A DNA stretch of 64,000 nt from Planctomycetota bacterium. GTDB lineage: Bacteria > Planctomycetota > SZUA-567 > H5-PLA8. The stretch is taken from contig JBBRPR010000032.1 of assembly GCA_038227875.1 (NCBI GenBank), forward strand, positions 31,428 through 95,427, read 5' to 3'. The notes beneath the pieces were generated by a model that was given only the letters and a program-made list of their open reading frames with translations, did no database searches and was not told the origin of the DNA. The translations under genes and the position numbers were made by a program. Of this stretch, positions 3,037 to 14,362 are shown piece by piece; position 1 is the stretch's first letter, and each line of letters opens with the position of its first letter.

Positions 3037-5589
3037 TTAGAAACGCGTGCCGAACGTGAAGTCGATCGTCTTGGTGCGGTCCTGTTCGGTATGGGCCAGC
3101 GGGTGCGAGAAATAAATGCGCACCGGCAGCGGCGAAATAGGCGTGCGGATCGCCAGTCCCATGCCGACGGACGTGCGCCAGGAACCCGTGTTGGTAACGG
3201 TCGTGCGCGGATCGGTCTGGCCCGCGTCGAAGACATTGCCGGCGTCCGCGAAGACGCTGCCGCGGACCACTTCTTCGTACAGCGGCAGCGAGTATTCCGC
3301 CGACGCGAGAAGTTCCTTCTTGCCGCCGATCTGGAAACCGTTCTCCAACGGCGTGAGCGTGCGGTACTGGAAGCCGCGGACAGTGTCGATACCGCCGGCA
3401 TAGTAGCGCAGGAAGGGCGGGGGATCGGAGGTCTTGCCGTAGCCTTCGATGTCGCCGGCCTTGCCGTGCAGTTCGAGGATGTGCTTGCCGCCGCCGGCCG
3501 TCTTGTAGACGGTCAGGTAGCGGGCGATGTCCAGTTCGGCGCGGGCGTAATCCCAATCGCCCAGCAGCGGTCCGCCGCCCAGTTCCACCGACGCCTGCAT
3601 GATCATGCCGCGGCTGGGGAGCAGACGGGAATCGCGGCTGTCGTAGACCAGGCGCGGGGTGATGCTGCTGATCAGGCTCTGCCCTTCCTGTTCGCGCAGG
3701 ATCGGCGGGAAGCGGTGGCTGATCTTGCCAATGTCGGTGAAGCTGAAGCGGTAGTCGATTTCGCCGTCCCAGCGCGGTCCCCACAGGCGCTTGCCGACGC
3801 TGATGTTGATGCCGGTGTTGGTCTCGCTGAAATTCTGGTAATTGTCGACGTTGCGGAAGAGCGAGCCGCCGAGGCGGATCGGGCGGTCGAAGGCCCACGG
3901 TTCGGTGAAGGCCAGCAGGTAGTTCTGGCGCTTCTTGCCGCCGCTGGCTTCCAGGCTGGCCGTTTCGCCGGCGCCGGTGAAGGCGTTGCCGCCGAACAGG
4001 TCGCGCCAGCTCTTGGGCATGTTGCGGTAATCGAAATTGCGCTGCGTCACCTTCACATTGCCGACGACCGAATCGACCGAGGAGACGCCGACGCCGAAGT
4101 TGAATTCGCCGGTGTTCTTTTCGGTCACGTCGATGATCAGGTTCGCTTCTTCCGGATTGTCAGTCGCTTCCGGCGTGATGCGCACGTCGTCGTTGAAGTA
4201 ATTGAGATTCTTCAGGCGCTGGATGGCGATCTTCATCTTGGTCGTGTCGATGCGGTCGCCGGGGAACAGTTCCATCTGGCGGATGATGACCTTGTCGCGC
4301 GTCTTGACGTTGCCGCGCGTGATCACTTCCCGCAGCGTGACTTCGGCGCCTTCACGGACTTCGACCTGGACGTCGTAGAGATTGGGCTGCTTCTTCGTGC
4401 GTTCCGGATCGGTCACGAACTTGCTCGACGCATAGACCTTCGTGAAGACGCGGCCGCGTTCGCCGTAGAGATCGACGATGCGGTCGTGATCGTCGCGCAG
4501 CAGCAGGAAGTCGGAGTAGACCGCGCCGGGCTTGATCTTCATCACGGCGATGATCTCTTCCTTCGGAATCGATTCGTTGCCGGTGATGGTCACGGTGCCG
4601 GTGTGGTATTGCGGGCCTTCGCTGACGTGGATGACCAGCTCCGCCAGGCGCTTGCGTTTGCGGAACCAGTTCCAGTACGTTTCCTGCGAGACGTTGACGT
4701 CGACGGTTTCGACCTTGGCGTCCATGTAGCCGTGCTGCCAGTAGAATTGCTGAATGCGGTTCTTGTCGTTATCGAGTTCCTCGTCCTTCAGGTCGCCGGC
4801 GCGGAAGAGGCGGCGGTACTTGGTGGCCATGACGTTGCGCAGCGCCGTTTCGCTGAAGGCCTTGTTGCCGACGAAATGAATCGCGCGCACGCCGACCGGG
4901 CTGCCTTCGTCGAGCGTAAAGGCGATCAGCACTTCGTCCTGAACTTCGACTTCCTTGTTGGCGATGACCTGCCGGTGGCTGGAGATCGTTTCGATGCGGT
5001 ATTCGACCTTCACGCCGCGGAAGGCGTGGTCGCGGTAATACTGCTCGATCTTGGTGCGGTCCTTGTGGACTTCACCCGGGTCGTAGCGGCCGCCTTCGTG
5101 CGATTGCATCTGCTCGAGCAGCTTCGAATCGCTGACGGACTTGGTGCCGCGGAAGGTGATCTTGCTGATCACGCCTTTTTCCTGCAGGTCGATGGCCAGC
5201 ATCACGCCGCCGGGCCAGGGCTGAGGTTCGGTGGTGCGGACGTTGAGGAAGTAGCCGGAATCGTAGAGACGGTGGAAGTCTTCGTCCCAGATCTTGCGGT
5301 TGAACGGACGGCCCTTGCGCGTGCGGATCAGGCGCAGCACCGTGCCTTCGTCGACGCGGGTCAGACCGCGGATGTCGATGTTCTGGACGGTCTGGCCTTC
5401 GAACTGTTCGGTTTCGTCCTGAGGCGGGCCGGCCCGTTCTTCCGCGCGTAAGCCCGGAGCGGCGAAGGCGAAAAGAACGACCGATAATATCAGACCCAAC
5501 ACCGTACTGAGTGTTCCTGGCCATCGGGTCGTGGCTCTCAAGCTGCCGGGGCAGCGTGAGCTGAGAAGCGGAGAGGAGATCAGGCGCAA
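3037..5589 (-). CDS. bamA: Outer membrane protein assembly factor BamA
   Basis: POTRA repeats (ITGNESI, GNVKTRDKVIIRQ), YYAGGIDTVRGF motif, C-terminal FTFGTRF beta-signal. Exact start uncertain. Confidence 0.95.
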   Translation of the reverse strand: MRLISSPLLSSRCPGSLRATTRWPGTLSTVLGLILSVVLFAFAAPGLRAEERAGPPQDETEQFEGQTVQNIDIRGLTRVDEGTVLRLIRTRKGRPFNRKIWDEDFHRLYDSGYFLNVRTTEPQPWPGGVMLAIDLQEKGVISKITFRGTKSVSDSKLLEQMQSHEGGRYDPGEVHKDRTKIEQYYRDHAFRGVKVEYRIETISSHRQVIANKEVEVQDEVLIAFTLDEGSPVGVRAIHFVGNKAFSETALRNVMATKYRRLFRAGDLKDEELDNDKNRIQQFYWQHGYMDAKVETVDVNVSQETYWNWFRKRKRLAELVIHVSEGPQYHTGTVTITGNESIPKEEIIAVMKIKPGAVYSDFLLLRDDHDRIVDLYGERGRVFTKVYASSKFVTDPERTKKQPNLYDVQVEVREGAEVTLREVITRGNVKTRDKVIIRQMELFPGDRIDTTKMKIAIQRLKNLNYFNDDVRITPEATDNPEEANLIIDVTEKNTGEFNFGVGVSSVDSVVGNVKVTQRNFDYRNMPKSWRDLFGGNAFTGAGETASLEASGGKKRQNYLLAFTEPWAFDRPIRLGGSLFRNVDNYQNFSETNTGINISVGKRLWGPRWDGEIDYRFSFTDIGKISHRFPPILREQEGQSLISSITPRLVYDSRDSRLLPSRGMIMQASVELGGGPLLGDWDYARAELDIARYLTVYKTAGGGKHILELHGKAGDIEGYGKTSDPPPFLRYYAGGIDTVRGFQYRTLTPLENGFQIGGKKELLASAEYSLPLYEEVVRGSVFADAGNVFDAGQTDPRTTVTNTGSWRTSVGMGLAIRTPISPLPVRIYFSHPLAHTEQDRTKTIDFTFGTRF

Positions 5590-5595
5590 GCGATC

Positions 5596-7056
5596 CTATT
5601 CCCCCGCCGCCTGTTGGTCAGGCGTATAACTGACAAAGCGCAGAATGTCTTTCTGAAACGTCAGCTTCACGTTTCCGACCGGGCCGTTTCGGTTCTTCAA
5701 CACCATCGCGTCGCCCACATTGATGTGCTCCGCGTTCTTCTCGAGGTTGTAGTACTCCTCGCGGTACAGCATGATCACCACGTCGGCGTCCTGTTCGATC
5801 GACCCCGATTCGCGCAAGTCGGACAGCTGCGGGCGCTTGTCGTTGTCGCGCTTTTCCGCGGAGCGGTTGAGCTGCGACAGGACGATCACGGGAATTTCCA
5901 TTTCACGTGCGATCGCCTTCAGGCCACGCGAGATTTCCGCGACTTCCTGTTCGCGGTTGTCACGCTTGCCCGGCGGCCCCTGCATCAGCTGCAGGTAGTC
6001 GATGACGACAAGACGAATATCCTGGCGCTGGCGTAGCCGCCGGACTCGTGCACGTAGTGCGTTAATGGAAATCCCTGAAGTGTCATCGATATAAATCGGT
6101 GCACTCTGTAGAACTTTTCCCCAGAAGCGCATGTCTTCGAACTCTTTTTCGTCGAAATCGTAGCGGCGCATGCGCTGCGCAGAGAGCCCCGCCTGCGCGC
6201 ACAGAATGTTCTTGGCGACCTGCTCGCGCGGCATTTCCAAGCTGAAGATGGCAGTGGGTTTAACCGTCTTTTCGTGGCCCACGGAAATCTGTCGCGCGAT
6301 GTTGATCGCGAACGTGGTTTTACCCATCGACGGGCGGCCGGCGATAATAATTAATTCTCCCGGCCACAATCCGCCGGACATCAAACGATCCAGGTCGACG
6401 AAGTGGGTCGGCAGCGCCGGCGATTCGATCTCACGCCCTTCGCGCTTGGCGGCCTGAACTTTTTCGGCGTTCTCGAGCGCCTTGGTCATCATGTCGACCA
6501 TCGGCACGGCGTCGTTGTTGGACCGCTTGTCGGAGATCTTGAAGATGATCTGCTCGGCTTCTTCGATCAGCTCGTCGCTGCGCAGCGCGCCGGGCGTCTG
6601 CACGCGCTGCAGAATCGTGGCCGCGGCGACGAGCAATTCGCGCTCAACGGCGCGTTCGCGGACGAGGCGGCAGTAGTTTTCGATGCCCGCGGCGCTGGGC
6701 GTGTCCATCATCAGCTTGCCGACTTCATCGCGGCCGCCGACGGAATCCAACAGGCCCTGACGCGTCAGTTCGGAGACGGCGACGAGCTCGTCGAGATTCT
6801 CGGACTTCTGGAAGAGTTCGCTTAAGACTTTGAAGAGCGTGCGGTGCCGCGGCAGGTAGAAATCGTCGGGCTTGAGTTCTTCGATGGCGACATAAGCGGC
6901 CTGAGACTCGATGAGCATCGAGCCTAAAACGCCACGCTCGGCCTGTTCATCGAACGGAGGGACTTTCTCCAGATTCGATTCGGGCTTGCGTAATGCGTCA
7001 TTTGCAGCACTGCCGCGTGATTCCTCACGCTCAGCAGAGCCACGGCCGGTCGCCAT
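5596..7056 (-). CDS. dnaB: Replicative DNA helicase
   Basis: PPFDEQAERGVLGS, Walker A GRPSMGKT, VIDYLQLM, LSQLNR, SDLRESGSIEQDAD, KNRNGPVG; no intein. Confidence 0.98.
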   Translation of the reverse strand: MATGRGSAEREESRGSAANDALRKPESNLEKVPPFDEQAERGVLGSMLIESQAAYVAIEELKPDDFYLPRHRTLFKVLSELFQKSENLDELVAVSELTRQGLLDSVGGRDEVGKLMMDTPSAAGIENYCRLVRERAVERELLVAAATILQRVQTPGALRSDELIEEAEQIIFKISDKRSNNDAVPMVDMMTKALENAEKVQAAKREGREIESPALPTHFVDLDRLMSGGLWPGELIIIAGRPSMGKTTFAINIARQISVGHEKTVKPTAIFSLEMPREQVAKNILCAQAGLSAQRMRRYDFDEKEFEDMRFWGKVLQSAPIYIDDTSGISINALRARVRRLRQRQDIRLVVIDYLQLMQGPPGKRDNREQEVAEISRGLKAIAREMEIPVIVLSQLNRSAEKRDNDKRPQLSDLRESGSIEQDADVVIMLYREEYYNLEKNAEHINVGDAMVLKNRNGPVGNVKLTFQKDILRFVSYTPDQQAAGE

Positions 7057-7443: not shown

Positions 7444-7893
7444 TTAGTCGCCTTCGGCCACGATCCAGACCTTGATCACGGCTTCCGCGCCCGGGGCCAG
7501 CTTCAACGTAACATCAGGCGTGCCCAAGGTTTTGAAGGGCGCTTCAATGGCGACGGCAGCGGCGGGAACGTGGATCTTGTGTTCGGCCAGAATCGCTTTC
7601 GCAATTTCTTCTTGGCCCACCGATCCATACAACTTTTCTTCCTGCGCCTTGGCGGAGATCGTCACCGAGCGGCCGTTCAGCATTTCAGCCACCGATTTGA
7701 GCTCTTCCACGCGCTTCTGTTCGCGGACCAGGCGGCGCTTGCGTTCCGCTTCGATCTGCTTTTCAGAATCGGCGGTGCAGAGGTAGGCCATCTGGCGGGG
7801 CAGCAGGTAGTTGCGCGCAAATCCGTCGCGCACTTCGACCACTTCACCCAGCTTGCCCAGCTTCTCAATGTCGTCGCGCAAAATGACTTTCAT
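7444..7893 (-). CDS. rplI: 50S ribosomal protein L9
   Basis: MKVILRDDIEKLGKLGEVVEVRDGFARNYLLP, KLYGSV; GGAG RBS. Confidence 0.98.
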   Translation of the reverse strand: MKVILRDDIEKLGKLGEVVEVRDGFARNYLLPRQMAYLCTADSEKQIEAERKRRLVREQKRVEELKSVAEMLNGRSVTISAKAQEEKLYGSVGQEEIAKAILAEHKIHVPAAAVAIEAPFKTLGTPDVTLKLAPGAEAVIKVWIVAEGD

Positions 7894-8009
7894 GTCGTTC
7901 TCTCCACTAAAAATGCATGCTTTAGCACAACAGCAATTCAACAATTCGCTGATTTGAGCCACCCGCTGCGCTCAAATCCCGGTCATTCGACTTTCGCCGC
8001 TCAACTTTC

Positions 8010-8276
8010 TTAGCGTCCAACGAACGGCAACAACGCCAGCAATCGCGCGCGCTTGACGGCGATCTGGATGCGGCGCTGACAGAACGCGCAGGCGCCCGAC
8101 CGCTTGCGGGAGAACAGCTTGCCCTGCGGGGTCACCAGCTTCATCAGCATGCGGGTGTCCTTGTAGTCGACGTTGCACTTGCCGTCCTTCATGAAGCGGC
8201 ACGCGCCACGCCGGCCGCGGAATCCGCCCATGCCGCCGTCGCGATCTTCTCTGCTCTGGAATTCTCGTTCAGCCAC
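8010..8276 (-). CDS. rpsR: 30S ribosomal protein S18
   Basis: VDYKDTRML..GKLFSRKRSGACAFCQRRIQIAVKRARLLALLPF. Confidence 0.97.
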   Translation of the reverse strand: MAEREFQSREDRDGGMGGFRGRRGACRFMKDGKCNVDYKDTRMLMKLVTPQGKLFSRKRSGACAFCQRRIQIAVKRARLLALLPFVGR

Positions 8277-8351: not shown

Positions 8352-8870
8352 TTAAAACGGAATGTTCTCTTCGGGAATGTCCAGGTCTTCCGGTTCCGGA
8401 CCGGAGTCCATGTCGTTGGGCTGCTGATGCTGCGGCGGAGCCTGACGCTGCTGCGGGGGACGCGGAGGACGATTGGCCGGCGCGCCGCCGCCCTGTCCAC
8501 CACCACCACCACCGCTGCCACCGGGACCACCCTGTCCGCCACCGACGAATTGAATGCGATCGGCGACGACCTTCAACTTCGAACGCTTCTGGCCGGTGGT
8601 CTTGTCGTCCCACTGGTCCAGCTTGAGCCGGCCTTCGACGAAAATCGGCCGGCCTTTGCTCAGGTACTGATGCGCCGTCTCGGCGGTTTTGCCGAAGGCG
8701 TCGATGTCCACGAACGTGACTTCTTCGCGCAGCTCGTTGGTCTTCGTGTCGCGGAACTTGCGGTTGACCGCCAGCCCCAACTGCGCCACGGCCATGCCCG
8801 AGGGCGTATAGCGCATCTCAATATCGCGCGTCAGGTTTCCCATGAGCAGTACTTTGTTCAGGCTCGCCAT
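8352..8870 (-). CDS. ssb: Single-stranded DNA-binding protein
   Basis: [36 protein letters not shown], Gly-rich linker, acidic tail EENIPF. Confidence 0.98.
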
Positions 8871-8932
8871 GTTTATAGTTCTCCACACTGGCTTTCCAGA
8901 GGTCCTGCACTCACCCATTCCGCTGAACCGAT

Positions 8933-9094: not shown

Positions 9095-9679
9095 CTAGTG
9101 CCGGGGACCCGAGGACGAACCGCCGCTCGATCCACCCGGACGCGGGCCACGGCGATCGCCGCCGCCACCACCGCCGAAGAACCGGCGTTCGCCGCCGCCG
9201 CCACCACCACCGCCGCCACCGAAGCCGCCGCCGAAATCGTCATCGTCCAGCGCGCGCACCGGCGGAGAGGTCGTCAGACCGTCTTCGTCCACGGTGATCA
9301 TGTGGCGCAGCACGACTTCCGAGAGGCGCGCGTTACGGTCAATCTTGATCACGGCTTCCGTCGGAGCGGAGAAGTGATTGATGATGTACAGACCGCGCTT
9401 GCGCTTCTTGATCTGGTAGGCCAGGCGGCGTTCTTCCCACTTGTCCGCGTTGAGCCACGTGCCGCCGCCCTTCTCGACGATCTCCTTCAGCGCCACGATT
9501 ACCTTGTTGTAGTCTTCGCGGCCCGTGTTCGCGTCGACCACCCACATGCACTCGTACAAGCGCACGCCGGTGGGCAGTTCCGGAGTCGGCATCACCGGAG
9601 CGGGTGCCGCAACAGGAGCGGCCGCTGCCGGAGTCGCCGCAGCTGCGGGAGCCGCCGGGGGTGTTGTGCTGTCGGACAT
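9095..9679 (-). CDS. rpsF: 30S ribosomal protein S6 with N- and C-terminal low-complexity extensions
   Basis: YECMWVV, WEERRLAYQIKK..GLY, RLSEVVLRHMI; position between pth and ssb. Confidence 0.93.
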   Translation of the reverse strand: MSDSTTPPAAPAAAATPAAAAPVAAPAPVMPTPELPTGVRLYECMWVVDANTGREDYNKVIVALKEIVEKGGGTWLNADKWEERRLAYQIKKRKRGLYIINHFSAPTEAVIKIDRNARLSEVVLRHMITVDEDGLTTSPPVRALDDDDFGGGFGGGGGGGGGGERRFFGGGGGGDRRGPRPGGSSGGSSSGPRH

Positions 9680-9741: not shown

Positions 9742-10383
9742 TCAATCCTGCTTACTGCTCCTGCCGTCTGCCTTCTTGCCTTTTTCCGGCGCGTTGAATT
9801 TGTTCATCGCCGCTTCGATGCCCTGCGCGGCCCAGTACAAACTCGCTTCGCACGCCACGTCCATCGACTTCGCCAGCACCGTCTCTTCTTCCTGCGAGAA
9901 CCGGCCCAGCACGTGGCCGGCAAGGTTCTCGGGCTGGCGTTCGGTACTCGAATCCCGTCCGCCGACCCCCAGCCGCAGGCGCGCGTAATCCTGCGTCGCC
10001 AGCGTGCGGGTGATGTCCTTCAGGCCATTGTGTCCGCCATCCGAACCGCCACGCCGCATGCGGATGGCGCCCACCGGCAGCGCCACGTCGTCCACGATCA
10101 CCAGCACATCCTGCACGGCAACTTTGAAGTACCCGGTAAAGCTCACCACTGTTTCGCCGGACAGATTCATGAACGTCTGCGGCTTGACCAGCAGCAACTT
10201 TCCGTCGTCGCCATCCTTCAATCTGCCAGTCTGTTCGGCGCTGGCATATTCGCCTTTGAACTTGTTCCGGTCGACCTGCACGCCCAGCTTTCCGGCGAGC
10301 AGATCGATGACGCGAAACCCAACGTTATGCCGCGTCTTTGCGTACTGCGCGCCAGGATTGCCAAGTCCCACAATCAATTTCAT
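9742..10383 (-). CDS. pth: Peptidyl-tRNA hydrolase
   Basis: LIVGLGNPG..Y..TRHNVGF, KPQTFMNLSG, GGHNGL, RLRLGVG. Confidence 0.98.
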   Translation of the reverse strand: MKLIVGLGNPGAQYAKTRHNVGFRVIDLLAGKLGVQVDRNKFKGEYASAEQTGRLKDGDDGKLLLVKPQTFMNLSGETVVSFTGYFKVAVQDVLVIVDDVALPVGAIRMRRGGSDGGHNGLKDITRTLATQDYARLRLGVGGRDSSTERQPENLAGHVLGRFSQEEETVLAKSMDVACEASLYWAAQGIEAAMNKFNAPEKGKKADGRSSKQD

Positions 10384-10412: not shown

Positions 10413-11093
10413 CTATTTCTTCGCGTCTTTCTTCTCTTCTTTTTTCTCGGGGACCTTCGGTCCACCTTCGGCCGCCGCGCCTTCTTCGTCCTTCTTCGCG
10501 GTGAGCACAATCGGTTCGGTCGGCGCGCCTTCGGCCGGTGCGGCTTCTTCCGTGCGCGGTTCGTGCACGGCCACGACGACGATGTCGCCATTGTCCGTCG
10601 CGGTCACGCCGTCGGGCAGCTTGATTTCGCGGACGTGGAGCGCGTCGTCAACGTCCAGCGGTTCGACATCGACAATGATTTTGTCGGGAATCTGCGTCGG
10701 CAGACATTCCACGTGCATGGTGTGCAGGGGCTGATGGAGCACGCCGCCCTTGCCGTGGCCCTTGGGCACGCCCTTGAGCACCACCGAGATGGCGACGCGG
10801 ACCTTCTGGCCTTCCTTCAGTTCGTTGAAGTCGACGTGGAGCGTGTCGTCGCCCATCGGACCGTACTGCACGTCCTTGATCAGGACCTGCTTGGGGCCGC
10901 CGTCGAGCTTCAGGGTGACCACGCGTTCGCCGGAGGCCAGGACCTTCTTCCATTCGTTCAACGGAACGGAAAGGTTCGTGCCTTCCTTGCCTTCGCGGTA
11001 CATCACCGCCGGAACGCGGTCCTCGCGGCGCAGCCGCGCGGCGGCATGGCGTCCCTTTTCGGTTCGAAGTGTGGCTGACAGTTCACGGGCCAT
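10413..11093 (-). CDS. rplY: 50S ribosomal protein L25/CTC
   Basis: ARLRREDRVPAVMY, VLIKDVQ..HVDF, CTC C-terminal domain (GGVL, ECLPTQIPD). Confidence 0.96.
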   Translation of the reverse strand: MARELSATLRTEKGRHAAARLRREDRVPAVMYREGKEGTNLSVPLNEWKKVLASGERVVTLKLDGGPKQVLIKDVQYGPMGDDTLHVDFNELKEGQKVRVAISVVLKGVPKGHGKGGVLHQPLHTMHVECLPTQIPDKIIVDVEPLDVDDALHVREIKLPDGVTATDNGDIVVVAVHEPRTEEAAPAEGAPTEPIVLTAKKDEEGAAAEGGPKVPEKKEEKKDAKK

Positions 11094-11132: not shown

Positions 11133-12857
11133 TCAAACAAACAATTCGCTGACGCTCAGGTTCCGATGGGTGCGCATGATCGCCTCGCCCAACAGCGGCG
11201 CGACGCTCAGCACTTTCAAGTTCACGTTTTCAGGACGCTTCTTCAATTCAATCGTGTCGCAGACGGCCAGTTCCGACACGTTCATGCCGTTGAGCCGCTC
11301 GAAGGCGCGGCCGCAGAAGACCGGGTGCGTGGCCATCAAAATCACGCTCCGCGCACCGTACTCCAGCGCAGTTTCCACCGCCTGCTTGACCGAACCGGCC
11401 GTGGAAATCATGTCGTCGACGATCAGCGTGTTGCGCCCCTTGATCTCACCGACCACGTGGCCCTTCACGACTTCCGAATCGCCGACGCGGCGCTTGTCGA
11501 TCACCGCCAGCGTGCCGTTGAGGCGACGCGCGAAATTGTTCGCCATCTTGATGCGGCCCGGATCGGGGCTCAGGATGGTCAGGTCGGGCAGATTCAATTC
11601 CTGCATGTGCTTGAGCTGCACGCGCGTGGCGTAGAGATGGTCCACCGGCAGGTCGAAGAACCCTTGAATCTGTTCGGCGTGCAATTCGACGCACATCACC
11701 CGGTCCGCGCCGGCCTGCGTGATCAGATTGGCGACGAGCTTCGCCGTGATCGGCACGCGGCCTTCGTGCTTGCGGTCCTGGCGCGCATAGCCAAAGTACG
11801 GCATCACCGCCGTGATCCGCTGCGCCGAAGCGCGGCGGCAGGCGTCGATCAGCACCAGCAGTTCCATCAGGTGATCGTTCACCGGAGGACTCGTCGGCTG
11901 GACGATGTACACGTCGCGGCCGCGGATGTCTTCTTCGATGCGGATCTTCGTTTCGCCGTCGGGGAAGTGGCTGACTTCGGCCTTGCCCAGCGGAATGCCC
12001 AGGTAGGCGCAGATGTCGTCGGCCAGCTTCGGGTTGGCGTTGCCGGTGAAGATGCGCAGGTTGTGGTAGAGCTCCGCCGAAAAATCCATCGAGCCATCGC
12101 TGCCGGCCGTGGCGTAACGGTCGGAGAGCAGCTTGTCGGCCGTCTGCAGCTCGGCCGGAGTGTTGATGCCCAGCACTTCCACCGCGCTGTGCGCCTTTAC
12201 CGCGACCACGGACAGGCCGTTCTTAACCAGCATGCCGATGGTGTCGGTGAGGTAAAATTCTTCCTGCGCGTTGTCGTTGCGCAGCTGGCTGAGCGCCGGA
12301 AAGAGCTTGCCGGGCCCGAAGACGTACGTGCCGGAATTGATCTCGTCGATCTTGCGCTGATCGGGCGTCGCGTCGCGATTTTCGACGATCGACTTCACGT
12401 TGCCCTTTTCGTCGCGCAGGATGCGGCCGTAGGCGTGATCGCCGGCGACCTTGCCCGTCAGCACCACCGCGCCGGCCTTCGTCTCTGCCTGCTTGTCGAC
12501 CAGCTGGCGGATCGTTCCCGCGCGGAGCAGCGGCACGTCACCGGAGAGCACCGCGATCGGGCCCTTCCAGCTTCCCAGCAGCGCTTCGGTGCAGCGCGCG
12601 GCATGGCCGGTGCCCAGCTGTTTTTCCTGGACGCAGTGATCCACGTCCGGATCGAGCACCTTTACGACCTGTTCGCGGCCATAGCCGAGAACCACGACAA
12701 TCTTGGACGCGCCGGCCGCCTTGGCGGACTTGACGACCCAGTCAATCAGGGGACGGCCGCGGAGCATGTGGAGCACTTTGGGAATGTCCGACCCCATGCG
12801 CTTGCCCTGTCCGGCAGCCATGATGATCGCAGCAAAACCCGTCTTTGATCCAGCCAT
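11133..12857 (-). CDS. prs: Fusion of GlmU-type nucleotidyltransferase domain and ribose-phosphate pyrophosphokinase (Prs)
   Basis: N-half MAAGQGKRMGSDIPKVLH, QLGTGHA, YGRI, EINSGTY, NAQEEFYLTD; C-half FPDGE, PYFGYARQDRK, IVDDMISTAGS, ATHPVF; one uninterrupted frame. Confidence 0.9.
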   Translation of the reverse strand: MAGSKTGFAAIIMAAGQGKRMGSDIPKVLHMLRGRPLIDWVVKSAKAAGASKIVVVLGYGREQVVKVLDPDVDHCVQEKQLGTGHAARCTEALLGSWKGPIAVLSGDVPLLRAGTIRQLVDKQAETKAGAVVLTGKVAGDHAYGRILRDEKGNVKSIVENRDATPDQRKIDEINSGTYVFGPGKLFPALSQLRNDNAQEEFYLTDTIGMLVKNGLSVVAVKAHSAVEVLGINTPAELQTADKLLSDRYATAGSDGSMDFSAELYHNLRIFTGNANPKLADDICAYLGIPLGKAEVSHFPDGETKIRIEEDIRGRDVYIVQPTSPPVNDHLMELLVLIDACRRASAQRITAVMPYFGYARQDRKHEGRVPITAKLVANLITQAGADRVMCVELHAEQIQGFFDLPVDHLYATRVQLKHMQELNLPDLTILSPDPGRIKMANNFARRLNGTLAVIDKRRVGDSEVVKGHVVGEIKGRNTLIVDDMISTAGSVKQAVETALEYGARSVILMATHPVFCGRAFERLNGMNVSELAVCDTIELKKRPENVNLKVLSVAPLLGEAIMRTHRNLSVSELFV

Positions 12858-12960
12858 GTTTGATCCTGTTCCAGAAAATGCGATCACCGTCAGCGGGCGA
12901 ATCTGCGCGCTGAGAGCATCGCAACCCCGAACACATCAACATCTAGAGTGAAAAGTGCCC

Positions 12961-13117
12961 AACTACTTCAACAACGTTGTCCTCTGGCGAGAGTCTCGGT
13001 CCGCATCCCTTATATGGAGCTTTAAGGAACGCAGTGCCTCTCTAAGCATGGCTTGGAATTGCTGCCTCCAACCGTGCTCTGTCCATCCGTCACGTCAGGG
13101 GGACACCTGAAGCGACC
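12961..13117 (-). ncRNA. Candidate structured RNA (5' leader or independent ncRNA), family unknown
   Basis: Hand folding gives a three-way junction with 5'/3' closing stems; G-U pairs form only on the minus strand; starts just after a sigma70 promoter. Confidence 0.6.
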
Positions 13118-13122
13118 GGGGG

Positions 13123-13151
13123 TTTATAGGGGAGGGCAGTGGTGATGTCAA
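13123..13151 (-). promoter_or_regulatory. sigma70-type promoter
   Basis: Minus strand TTGACA (13151-13146), 17-nt spacer, TATAAA (13128-13123). Confidence 0.8.
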
Positions 13152-13164
13152 ATCAGAATGCAGT

Positions 13165-13349
13165 TTCGTAGTCCGGGCGTCCCGCCCGGTCAAATCTCAG
13201 AAAAGGCGAACAGGTCAAATTCGTTCGATAGACGAGCTATCGTGCGAAGCCATCGCCCTTCGCTCTCGCGGTAAAGAACGCGCCGCTCGGAAAGCATGTT
13301 GTTCTCGACGTGGATGAAGTCTGACCGGGCGGGACGCCCGGACTACGAA
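13165..13349. mobile_element. REPIN/MITE-like element, copy 1 (inverted GTAG-type REP pair)
   Basis: Perfect 28-bp terminal inverted repeats ttcgtagtccgggcgtcccgcccggtca / tgaccgggcgggacgcccggactacgaa; related copy at 30598. Confidence 0.8.
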
Positions 13350-13381
13350 CCGCCCGCTCGATCGCGCAAAAAAGATACACA

Positions 13382-14362
13382 TCACTTCTCTTCATCGTTC
13401 ATCATTTCCTTCATCACCACGCCCGTGCCGCCGGGAATCTGCACGCCGAGGATCGCGCCCATCGTCGTCGCCACGTCGATCTGCTCCCGCTTGGTCTCCA
13501 GGACGGCGTTTTTCTTGAAGTCCGGCCCCGCTGCGAAGCAGAGAATGTGGCGGCAGCTCGGGCAGTCGTCGCCGTGGCTGATGAATCCGTCGAAGTGCCC
13601 ATCCGCATGGCGCCCGTGATCGTCGCTGATGAAAAACGCCGTCTTGTTGGCGTAAAACGGATCCTTCTGCAGCAGCTGCCACAATTCCCACGCGTAGCCG
13701 TCGCACTCCCGGATTGCCGCGAGGTACCCGTCCCAATTGCGCGCGTGGCCGTTGGCATCGGGCCCCTTCAGGTTGATCACCACCAGCCGCGGATGATCGC
13801 GCGGCAGAATCGTTTTGATCGCGTCGAACGTTTTGGAATCCTCGCGGTACGCGCTGCCCAACCCTTTCGTGCCGCAGTCGGTGCTGCAGCGGAATTTGCC
13901 CTTCCATTCCGGATCGGCGCAGTCGGCGAGCACCTCCAGCTTGTCTTTGGAGCAGATCAGCCACGCCGACGACGCCGGCTGCCCGGAGGATTTCATCCAG
14001 AGCTGCAGCAGCGTCGGGAACTTCGGCAATTCCTTGCCCGCATTGTCGATCATCTGGTACTTCCCGGACGTCAGCGCCGCATGCCCCGGGTTGGTCACCG
14101 TCGGCCCGTTGTTCTTGAAGTCCGTGTAGACGCAGCCTTCCTTGGCCAGGTCGTTGAAGATGTGCGGAATGTATTTGTGCTCCGGCTCGCCCCACGTCTC
14201 CGACCAGCGCGGCCCGTCGATCACCAGCAGCACGACATTCTCCGCCTTGAATTTCCGCGTCGCCATCGCCGCCGGAGTCGACGGTGTAGCGGGAGTCGCC
14301 GGCGTCTCCGCCGCGCAAACCGCGCTAACGAGCAGCGCGAACACCAGGCAGAATCGTTTCAT
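13382..14362 (-). CDS. Secreted alkaline phosphatase/sulfatase superfamily protein
   Basis: Signal peptide; VVLLVIDG, TNPGHAAL.SG, GPDANGH, SDDHGRH, QIDVATT metal-site motifs. Confidence 0.8.
   Translation of the reverse strand: MKRFCLVFALLVSAVCAAETPATPATPSTPAAMATRKFKAENVVLLVIDGPRWSETWGEPEHKYIPHIFNDLAKEGCVYTDFKNNGPTVTNPGHAALTSGKYQMIDNAGKELPKFPTLLQLWMKSSGQPASSAWLICSKDKLEVLADCADPEWKGKFRCSTDCGTKGLGSAYREDSKTFDAIKTILPRDHPRLVVINLKGPDANGHARNWDGYLAAIRECDGYAWELWQLLQKDPFYANKTAFFISDDHGRHADGHFDGFISHGDDCPSCRHILCFAAGPDFKKNAVLETKREQIDVATTMGAILGVQIPGGTGVVMKEMMNDEEK

Follow-up and report, generated by a model that had tools for sequence, protein, structure and literature searches.

The DNA upstream of a fused glmU/prs gene in this planctomycete holds what is, on comparative evidence, a genuine promoter-proximal, pseudoknotted 5′ leader RNA, uncatalogued until now: it is absent from Rfam 15, and as a structured RNA it is well supported. 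It probably lets ribosomal proteins, or some other growth signal, control the operon that it heads. The reading tentatively preferred here is that of a lineage-specific leader (operator) for ribosomal feedback of the S6:S18 type, whose binding we infer. To our knowledge, no regulatory RNAs have been described from the order-level uncultured Planctomycetota lineage that carries the element. The window is the whole 64,000-nt stretch of DNA analyzed, and positions are given in its coordinates (Table 1).

Table 1. Promoter, leader element, and operon genes in the query genome, in window coordinates.
Feature	Position	Strand	Remarks
-35 box TTGACA	13146..13151	-	read directly; similar box at the equivalent place in relatives
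-10 box TATAAA	13123..13128	-	read directly; 17-nt spacer separates it from the -35 box
Entire conserved RNA element, ~150 nt	12967..13116	-	covariance model R1 match, 76.5 bits, E 1.6e-16
P1, 5′ strand UCGCUUCA	13108..13115	-	alignment A4 columns 2-9
Pseudoknot, 5′ strand GUCCCC	13099..13104	-	inside P1 loop
P1, 3′ strand UGACGUGA	13090..13097	-	one U.C mismatch in the query
P2, variable arm AGCACGG..CCAUGCU	13044..13079	-	22-45 nt in relatives, sequences unrelated
P3, 5′ strand	13036..13042	-	GAGAG (13042-13038), one unpaired base, C13036
P4 hairpin GCGUUCCUUA..UAAGGGAUGC	13000..13035	-	variable length
Invariant CCG	12997..12999	-	in the 3′ bulge separating P4 from P3
P3, 3′ strand	12989..12995	-	G12995, one unpaired base, CUCUC (12993-12989)
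Pseudoknot, 3′ strand GAGGAC	12979..12984	-	
Query-specific hairpin (12923-12879) and UUUU (12878-12875)	12875..12923	-	between element and RBS
First gene, GlmU-type nucleotidyltransferase domain fused to ribose-phosphate pyrophosphokinase	11133..12857	-	574 aa
rplY (L25/Ctc)	10413..11093	-	Pfam
pth (peptidyl-tRNA hydrolase)	9742..10383	-	Pfam
rpsF (S6)	9095..9679	-	ATG at 9679
ssb	8352..8918	-	
rpsR (S18), 88-aa ORF	8010..8276	-	named by reading the sequence; counterpart found in G005
rplI (L9)	7444..7962	-	
dnaB	5596-7056	-	downstream of rplI
bamA	3037-5589	-	downstream of dnaB

The limits of the element were converted from its match to covariance model R1 (G000:C32:44394-44543), which was built without the pseudoknot. 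Read from its 5′ end, it comprises helix P1, with one pseudoknot strand in its loop; a linker, of about 10 nt in the query; the variable arm P2, which in 16 of 17 sequences forms, folded by itself, one hairpin with its closing pairs close to the ends of the arm; a GCUUAG junction; and P3, in which C13036 pairs with G12995, surmounted by the P4 hairpin. P3 and P4 jointly span 31-70 nt across the 17 sequences. The CCG is present in every one of these, and its columns are invariant in the separate alignment A1 (described below) too. A four-base linker, GCNA in 16 of 17 (GCCA in the query), then leads to the 3′ strand of the pseudoknot, beyond which the tail is semi-conserved. A K-turn reading of the CCG bulge was ruled out, the necessary G.A pairs not being conserved.

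The first-pass annotation had drawn this RNA as a three-way junction, its ends paired (GCUUCAG with UUGAAGU, and GUCC with GGAC) around two arms. The arms are real and conserved: AGCACGG..CCAUGCU corresponds to P2, and GAGAG..CUCUC with its inner GCGUUCCUUA..UAAGGGAUGC to P3 plus P4, the latter two covarying in the 17 sequences. The outer stems fared unevenly: the GUCC/GGAC part covaries, but the GCUUCAG/UUGAAGU part is found in the query alone. In all relatives the GCUUCAG strand has a local partner, a 3′ strand 8-9 nt downstream with which it forms P1. The fold is therefore an H-type pseudoknot and not a simply nested one: pairing between the P1 loop and the 3′ tail closes a three-way junction of P2 and the P3-P4 arm. 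The pseudoknot helix, P2, and P3 thus do form a three-way junction, closed by the pseudoknot. Across relatives the pseudoknot pairings are GUCCGC/GCGGAC, GUUCGC/GCGAAC, AUCCGC/GCGGAU, and AUUCGC/GCGAAU. The query's P1 loop sits one column off in the model alignment, which counts two of the query's pseudoknot pairs as unpaired and another two as gaps; in the proper register, its pseudoknot has one C.A mismatch.

The query sequence alone is no evidence for structure: its 264-nt leader has a minimum free energy of -93.4 kcal/mol with a z of -1.20, and 21 of 200 shuffles fold equally well or better. The minimum free energy fold contains a local 5′ hairpin, the two arms, and a hairpin preceding the start codon, and lacks the long-range outer stems. 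The case is made by the relatives, whose evidence greatly exceeds chance. RNAalifold, run on a MAFFT alignment of 15 sequences (A1), returned helices P1, P3, and P4, in which 15 of 19 pairs show compensatory changes; the pairing of the P1 loop with the 3′ tail was added to these by eye. In A1, 93.5% of cells pair, vs. 31-49% with the partners slid by 1-3 columns. In alignment A4, of 17 sequences (16 from family genomes plus the metagenome locus L173), the corresponding figures are 94.1% and 31-49%, there are double changes at 20 of 29 pairs, and none of 500 shuffles matches any of five measures. A4 was fitted to R1 for P1-P4, a bias against which the independent A1 result is a guard. The pseudoknot helix is outside R1, and its pairing count (98% of cells in A4) was therefore not fitted to the model; two of its pairs have changed on both sides, from G-C to A-U in six sequences and from C-G to U-A in five. 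Double changes occur at 7 of the 8 pairs of P1, where 94% of A4 cells pair; P3 closes in every one of the 17 sequences, with 100% of cells paired, double changes in 4 of 6 pairs, and a 3′ strand reading CUCUC, CUUCC, or CCCUC. All five closing pairs of P4 have double changes, and 82% of cells pair in the closing helix of P2. The first-pass annotation had staked its RNA on structural conservation in relatives, and the structure is conserved there, with clear covariation in 17 sequences.

The TTGACA-17-TATAAA promoter proposed for the minus strand was confirmed by direct reading (13151-13123). A promoter scan of the window did not list it, because the scan requires T at position 6 of the second hexamer. 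The best-scoring -35/-10 pair (scores of 7-11 of 12) ends 4-8 nt 5′ of the R1 model start in 16 of the 17 sequences, and in the remaining one, L173, an equal-scoring pair is visible at that distance; in the query, the element begins 6 nt past TATAAA, and the promoter gives way to a GC-rich stretch. From this spacing, the RNA should begin at, or adjoin, the transcription start.

Just upstream of the -35 box is an inverted pair of a 22-nt arm (13165-13190 and 13320-13345, ~155 nt apart). At two or fewer mismatches the arm has 125 copies in the genome (63 forward, 62 reverse; 0 for a reversed control), many of them in inverted pairs separated by 90-160 nt, and is a MITE/REP-like repeat family. 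One DNA sequencing run contains a form skipping from 13191 to 13321. A contig of the sole RNA library among 20 listed runs covers 13122-13255, which is the upstream repeat and not the element. Among contigs of four sequencing runs none spans 12944-13113, and no inference about expression is drawn from them.

A blastn search with the leader found no match in 40 relatives. The fused GlmU/Prs protein, or its two halves, was found in 40 of 41 genomes, and homologous leaders were located through this downstream protein and then by reading the upstream DNA of genomes in the same family. A search of the query genome with R1 gave one match only, the element itself. R1 matches occur in 16 of the 17 genomes of the query's family, with one intact copy in each; in the other, G003, glmU is cut by the contig end, so that the leader would be off the contig. 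None of 45 other genomes of the class matches, and there was no credible match in 148 further genomes sampled from the phylum, three matches of 21-27 bits being rejected as interior to ORFs of more than 500 aa. A pattern scan of metagenomes gave at least 120 stretches, from which 80 loci were retrieved for R1; L173 (92.9 bits, before a glmU-type gene) is the sole true homolog among these, and four further matches (18-26 bits) show neither a promoter nor a gene start within the 350 nt inspected. The tallies for the protein (40/41), the class (0/45), and gene order in the class include one genome marked unpublished, G017, on which no claim depends.

A divergent copy was recognized by eye in G018, from a second family of the order (L025 234-510). 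Its 5′ part has a promoter, 7 nt, P1 with a GUCCGC loop, a long P2, and GCUUAG; its 3′ part has P3 (GAGAAG/CUUCUC), a long P4, the CCG bulge, GCGGGC pairing with the P1 loop, and U6. P2 and P4 carry long insertions, and R1 scored P1 alone, at 6.6 bits. The motif is thus probably order-wide, and under-counted by R1. G009 (L048 300-1750, minus strand) has, ~1 kb upstream of its intact copy, a truncated second one that consists of the promoter and the element's 5′ half; the ~0.9 kb between them has small ORFs on the opposite strand, one of which (L048 1222-1536, plus strand, 104 aa) we take to resemble a HigA/XRE antitoxin. The arrangement looks like an insertion into P4 with duplication. In G015 (L006), palindromes of the type GCCGGCGTCCCGCCGGC are found inside P4 and in the spacer past the element, so that repeat elements appear to colonize its variable parts and leave the core undisturbed.

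In other families of the class, glmU is preceded by a different conserved leader (L017, L018, L020-L022, L028, L031). It comprises a promoter, a hairpin followed by U7 (L018, L031; the tail in L028 is U-poorer), GCGAACCGGUUCCAUAnUGUGCGAG with a 10-nt palindrome, and an RBS hairpin, and might serve either as a protein operator or as an attenuator sensitive to UTP.

By Pfam, the first gene of the query operon has NTP_transf_3 / NTP_transferase and Pribosyltran_N / Pribosyl_synth domains (ATG at 12857); the Pfam result for 11133-12857 did not show the acetyltransferase half that canonical GlmU has. Most family genomes have the two domains fused, whereas G007, G010, G018, and most of the class have them as adjacent separate genes. 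Throughout the class, with the exception of G005, the genes run in the order glmU, prs, rplY, pth, rpsF, and no hairpin is evident by reading in the 63-nt A-rich pth-rpsF spacer of the window. The element is always at the operon head and on the operon strand. Its distance to the first start codon ranges from 38 to 264 nt, and no hairpin, U-run, or RBS pairing is common to the spacers of relatives: there is no conserved terminator or anti-terminator. The hairpin with UUUU that the first-pass annotation placed before the start codon is present in the query, but it is not conserved in relatives and was unflagged by the terminator scan. Complementarities noted by eye between spacer hairpins and P3/P4 were dropped, as they differ between genomes.

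U-runs directly follow the tail in some relatives (U6 in G013 and G016, UUGUUUU in G009). Together with the hairpin and U-run of the query, that of G005, and the U6 of G018, the runs in G013 and G016 could be taken to end a separate or 5′-UTR-derived small RNA with a housekeeping role and a strong promoter of its own, for which the operon would be incidental. Such an RNA would fit with the near-consensus promoter, the single intact copy in each genome, and the high conservation of unpaired bases, and the 6S slot is nominally open: RF00013 has no match in the window or in five family genomes. That model detects only 5 of 14 control genomes, and missing nine it has little power here. 6S RNA is moreover a ~180-nt rod with a central bubble, unlike this covarying pseudoknotted junction, and SRP RNA was found elsewhere in all five genomes. 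In G013, G009, and G016 just 38-45 nt separate the element from the start codon, too little to fit another promoter, which forces membership in the mRNA there. With an invariable position at the operon head and on its strand, and no conserved terminator, a separate small RNA seems distinctly unlikely.

The most informative exception in gene order is G005, a 3.1-Mb, 83%-complete MAG. Here the element (contig C152, 52 bits) follows a TTGACA-17-TATAAG promoter and is succeeded by a weak hairpin with U9, by rpsF ~100 nt downstream, and then by a GTPase gene; the hairpin has only two G-C pairs, which is why the terminator scan did not flag it. The glmU/prs and rplY genes lack the element: they are on contig C281, where a different promoter-like sequence precedes them and where the ORF after rplY is pth by position. 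The rpsR gene is on contig C161. When the operon split, the element therefore stayed with the promoter and rpsF, and not with glmU/prs or rplY. This is a single event.

The split bears on what the leader might sense. Known riboswitches often use folds of this kind, in which a compact junction has a pseudoknot and numerous unpaired bases are invariant, and the element precedes glmU/prs in 16 of 17 sequences (and, by eye, in G018); it could accordingly belong to a new riboswitch class sensing a growth-state small molecule such as ppGpp, PRPP, UTP, or UDP-GlcNAc. In G005, however, the element goes with rpsF and glmU/prs has none, which speaks against any ligand connected with the reaction of Prs or of GlmU. 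Each genome also has just a single intact copy, the element is not associated with a second gene family, it is confined to one order-level lineage, and no conserved terminator or RBS sequestering accompanies it. The faint resemblance to ykkC-family (PRPP) aptamers raised in the first-pass annotation was not borne out: the Rfam ykkC-type models (guanidine-I, PRPP, ppGpp) have no match at gathering score in the 64 kb, and none on the element even at E<=10. The same annotation suggested checks for the glmS ribozyme, 6S, and L25 leader, and these likewise gave no match on the element at that threshold; the glmS ribozyme precedes glmS, and the gene downstream here is a GlmU-type transferase fused to Prs. 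A new riboswitch is accordingly judged quite improbable.

G005 weighs as well against another product of the operon as the ligand. L25, L9, and Pth are all encoded there (rplY, rplI, pth), but in G005 rplY and the gene after it have lost company with the element, and the Rfam L25 leader model does not match it. Alternatively, the RNA might be a plain mRNA-stabilizing 5′ structure, since 5′-terminal structures can protect mRNA; a covarying pseudoknot and ~25 near-invariant unpaired bases are not needed for that. Either version of this explanation is highly improbable.

More generally, Rfam 15 has no match in the 64-kb window at gathering score, and at E<=10 over 12600-13500 nothing falls on the element, the matches being on the repeat arms, plus one C/D-box chance match. 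There were none in 13 homologous loci, and seven scattered chance matches at E<=10 in 14 loci. Full-text literature searches on planctomycete motifs, r-protein leaders, and rpsF/S6:S18 yielded no described motif of this kind; PMC7247131, in the portion available, presents 20 r-leader candidates and does not mention Planctomycetes.

From the range of functions first suggested for the region (riboswitch, attenuator, r-protein leader, co-transcribed ncRNA), what stands is a conserved promoter-proximal structured RNA, with an r-protein leader now the leading choice. The ~150-nt RNA would form the 5′ leader of the mRNA glmU/prs-rplY-pth-rpsF-ssb-rpsR-rplI(-dnaB-bamA), with transcription starting a few bases past the conserved -10 box and P1 hence at the extreme 5′ end. 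The P3-P4 arm would be the operator for the S6:S18 pair, both encoded further down the operon; S6:S18 in excess of free 16S rRNA would bind the leader and lower operon expression. Because there is no conserved terminator or RBS pairing, the output step could be Rho-dependent or pause-dependent termination, or mRNA decay. The narrow distribution counts in favor, since r-protein leaders are usually restricted in this way. So do the G005 split, the hairpin-free pth-rpsF spacer of the window, and the outcome of an Rfam search of 20 rpsF loci of the class, none of which has an rpsF leader.

The known S6:S18 motif (S6S18CBM; PMC3854524 and PMC3895269) mimics the 16S rRNA residues that S18 contacts, C719-G721; it is directly 5′ of rpsF, and its stem contains the Shine-Dalgarno sequence 2-3 nt after CCR. 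Like that motif (RF02893; PMC3854524), the present element has its CCG in a bulge on the 3′ side, flanked by a stem and a variable-length hairpin, and this is so in all 17 sequences. Its operon encodes S6 and S18, and in G005 it is directly before rpsF. The differences are several: the 3′ strand of P3 is pyrimidine-rich and without a Shine-Dalgarno sequence; the bulge is 4 nt, vs. the 8-23 nt printed for S6S18CBM; in 16 of 17 sequences the element is at the operon head, three genes and more than 3 kb before rpsF, the fourth gene; and the CCG arm is embedded in a larger pseudoknotted three-way junction. RF02893 (RpsF_leader), which scores the E. coli leader at 110.1 bits, has no match to the element at E<=10 and none in 14 homologous loci. 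Given these differences in Shine-Dalgarno sequence, adjacency, RF02893 match, and likeness to 16S, the element is not filed as a member of S6S18CBM; it is proposed to work alike.

The comparison can be extended to 16S rRNA itself. In G006 the relevant segment reads GGAAGG-CCG-...-UCCUUCU, with CCG directly after the 3′ strand of a hairpin and before the pyrimidine strand of a purine/pyrimidine helix. The order of helices in the central domain (h20-h21-h22 and h22-h23 junctions; the S15/S6/S18 platform) matches that of the element: a closing helix (the pseudoknot), a first arm (P2), and then a purine-5′ arm with an inner hairpin and CCG. GCUU-AG precedes P3 much as GCUUGAG precedes the corresponding helix in G006 16S. 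The element has no counterpart of h23a, however, and its closing helix is a pseudoknot. Local alignment with 16S gives a score of 34, against a shuffle mean of 36, and R1 run with filters off on the 16S central domains of G006 and G014 gave no sense-strand match and a 6.1-bit match antisense.

Other points also count against S6:S18. A CCG bulge is poor in information; S6:S18 binding alone leaves P1, P2, and the pseudoknot unexplained; and the G005 split is one event in an 83%-complete MAG, where retention of the promoter could have carried the leader along. A further system to compare is the E. coli S10-operon leader, a structured 5′ leader regulated by L4, encoded several genes downstream. 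The element resembles it in being the structured 5′ end of a long operon with the putative regulator several genes downstream, and in that the control proposed would act on transcription elongation rather than by local RBS masking. There is no likeness of sequence or structure, however, and L4 is not in the operon.

The freely varying spacer (38-264 nt) and missing expression platform also suit an RNA acting on the polymerase itself. Processive antitermination RNAs include the put sites of phage HK022, which are two stem-loops, and the Bacillus EAR element. Like these, the element is promoter-proximal (at or adjoining the transcription start in all 17 sequences), heads a long operon, and has no expression platform. 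Folded at the 5′ end of the transcript and acting in cis, a leader of this sort might let the polymerase pass hairpins and U-runs along the ~10-kb, ten-gene operon. Several genomes have terminator-like signals or palindromes downstream of it: the hairpin with UUUU in the query, U6 in G013, G016, and G018, the repeat palindromes of G015, and in G005 a hairpin with U9 before the essential rpsF, with no room for a second promoter. In G005, too, the element is kept with its promoter whatever gene follows. These signals are inconsistent, however, the G005 hairpin in particular being the two-G-C-pair one passed over by the terminator scan. A pseudoknotted junction is unlike put, and the element has no match among the Rfam models of catalogued antitermination RNAs. 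Such elements are rare, moreover, and we know of none for ribosomal-protein operons. Antitermination is judged unlikely; a new class of promoter-proximal, polymerase-acting (antitermination) RNA, perhaps gated by S6:S18 on the CCG arm, is decidedly doubtful.

If the element is an S6:S18 operator, the CCG-bulge mimic of 16S can be rebuilt in a quite different scaffold and moved to the head of a mixed operon, and genes of envelope and nucleotide precursor synthesis, replication, and outer-membrane assembly would come under ribosomal feedback in these bacteria. If it is not, it would be an orphan RNA with clean covariation, either riboswitch-like or directed at the polymerase. Were S6:S18-gated antitermination to prove true, whether a ten-gene operon is read through would depend, by way of a single 5′ RNA, on the status of ribosome assembly; that operon brings together PRPP and UDP-GlcNAc synthesis, Pth, four ribosomal proteins, SSB, DnaB, and BamA.
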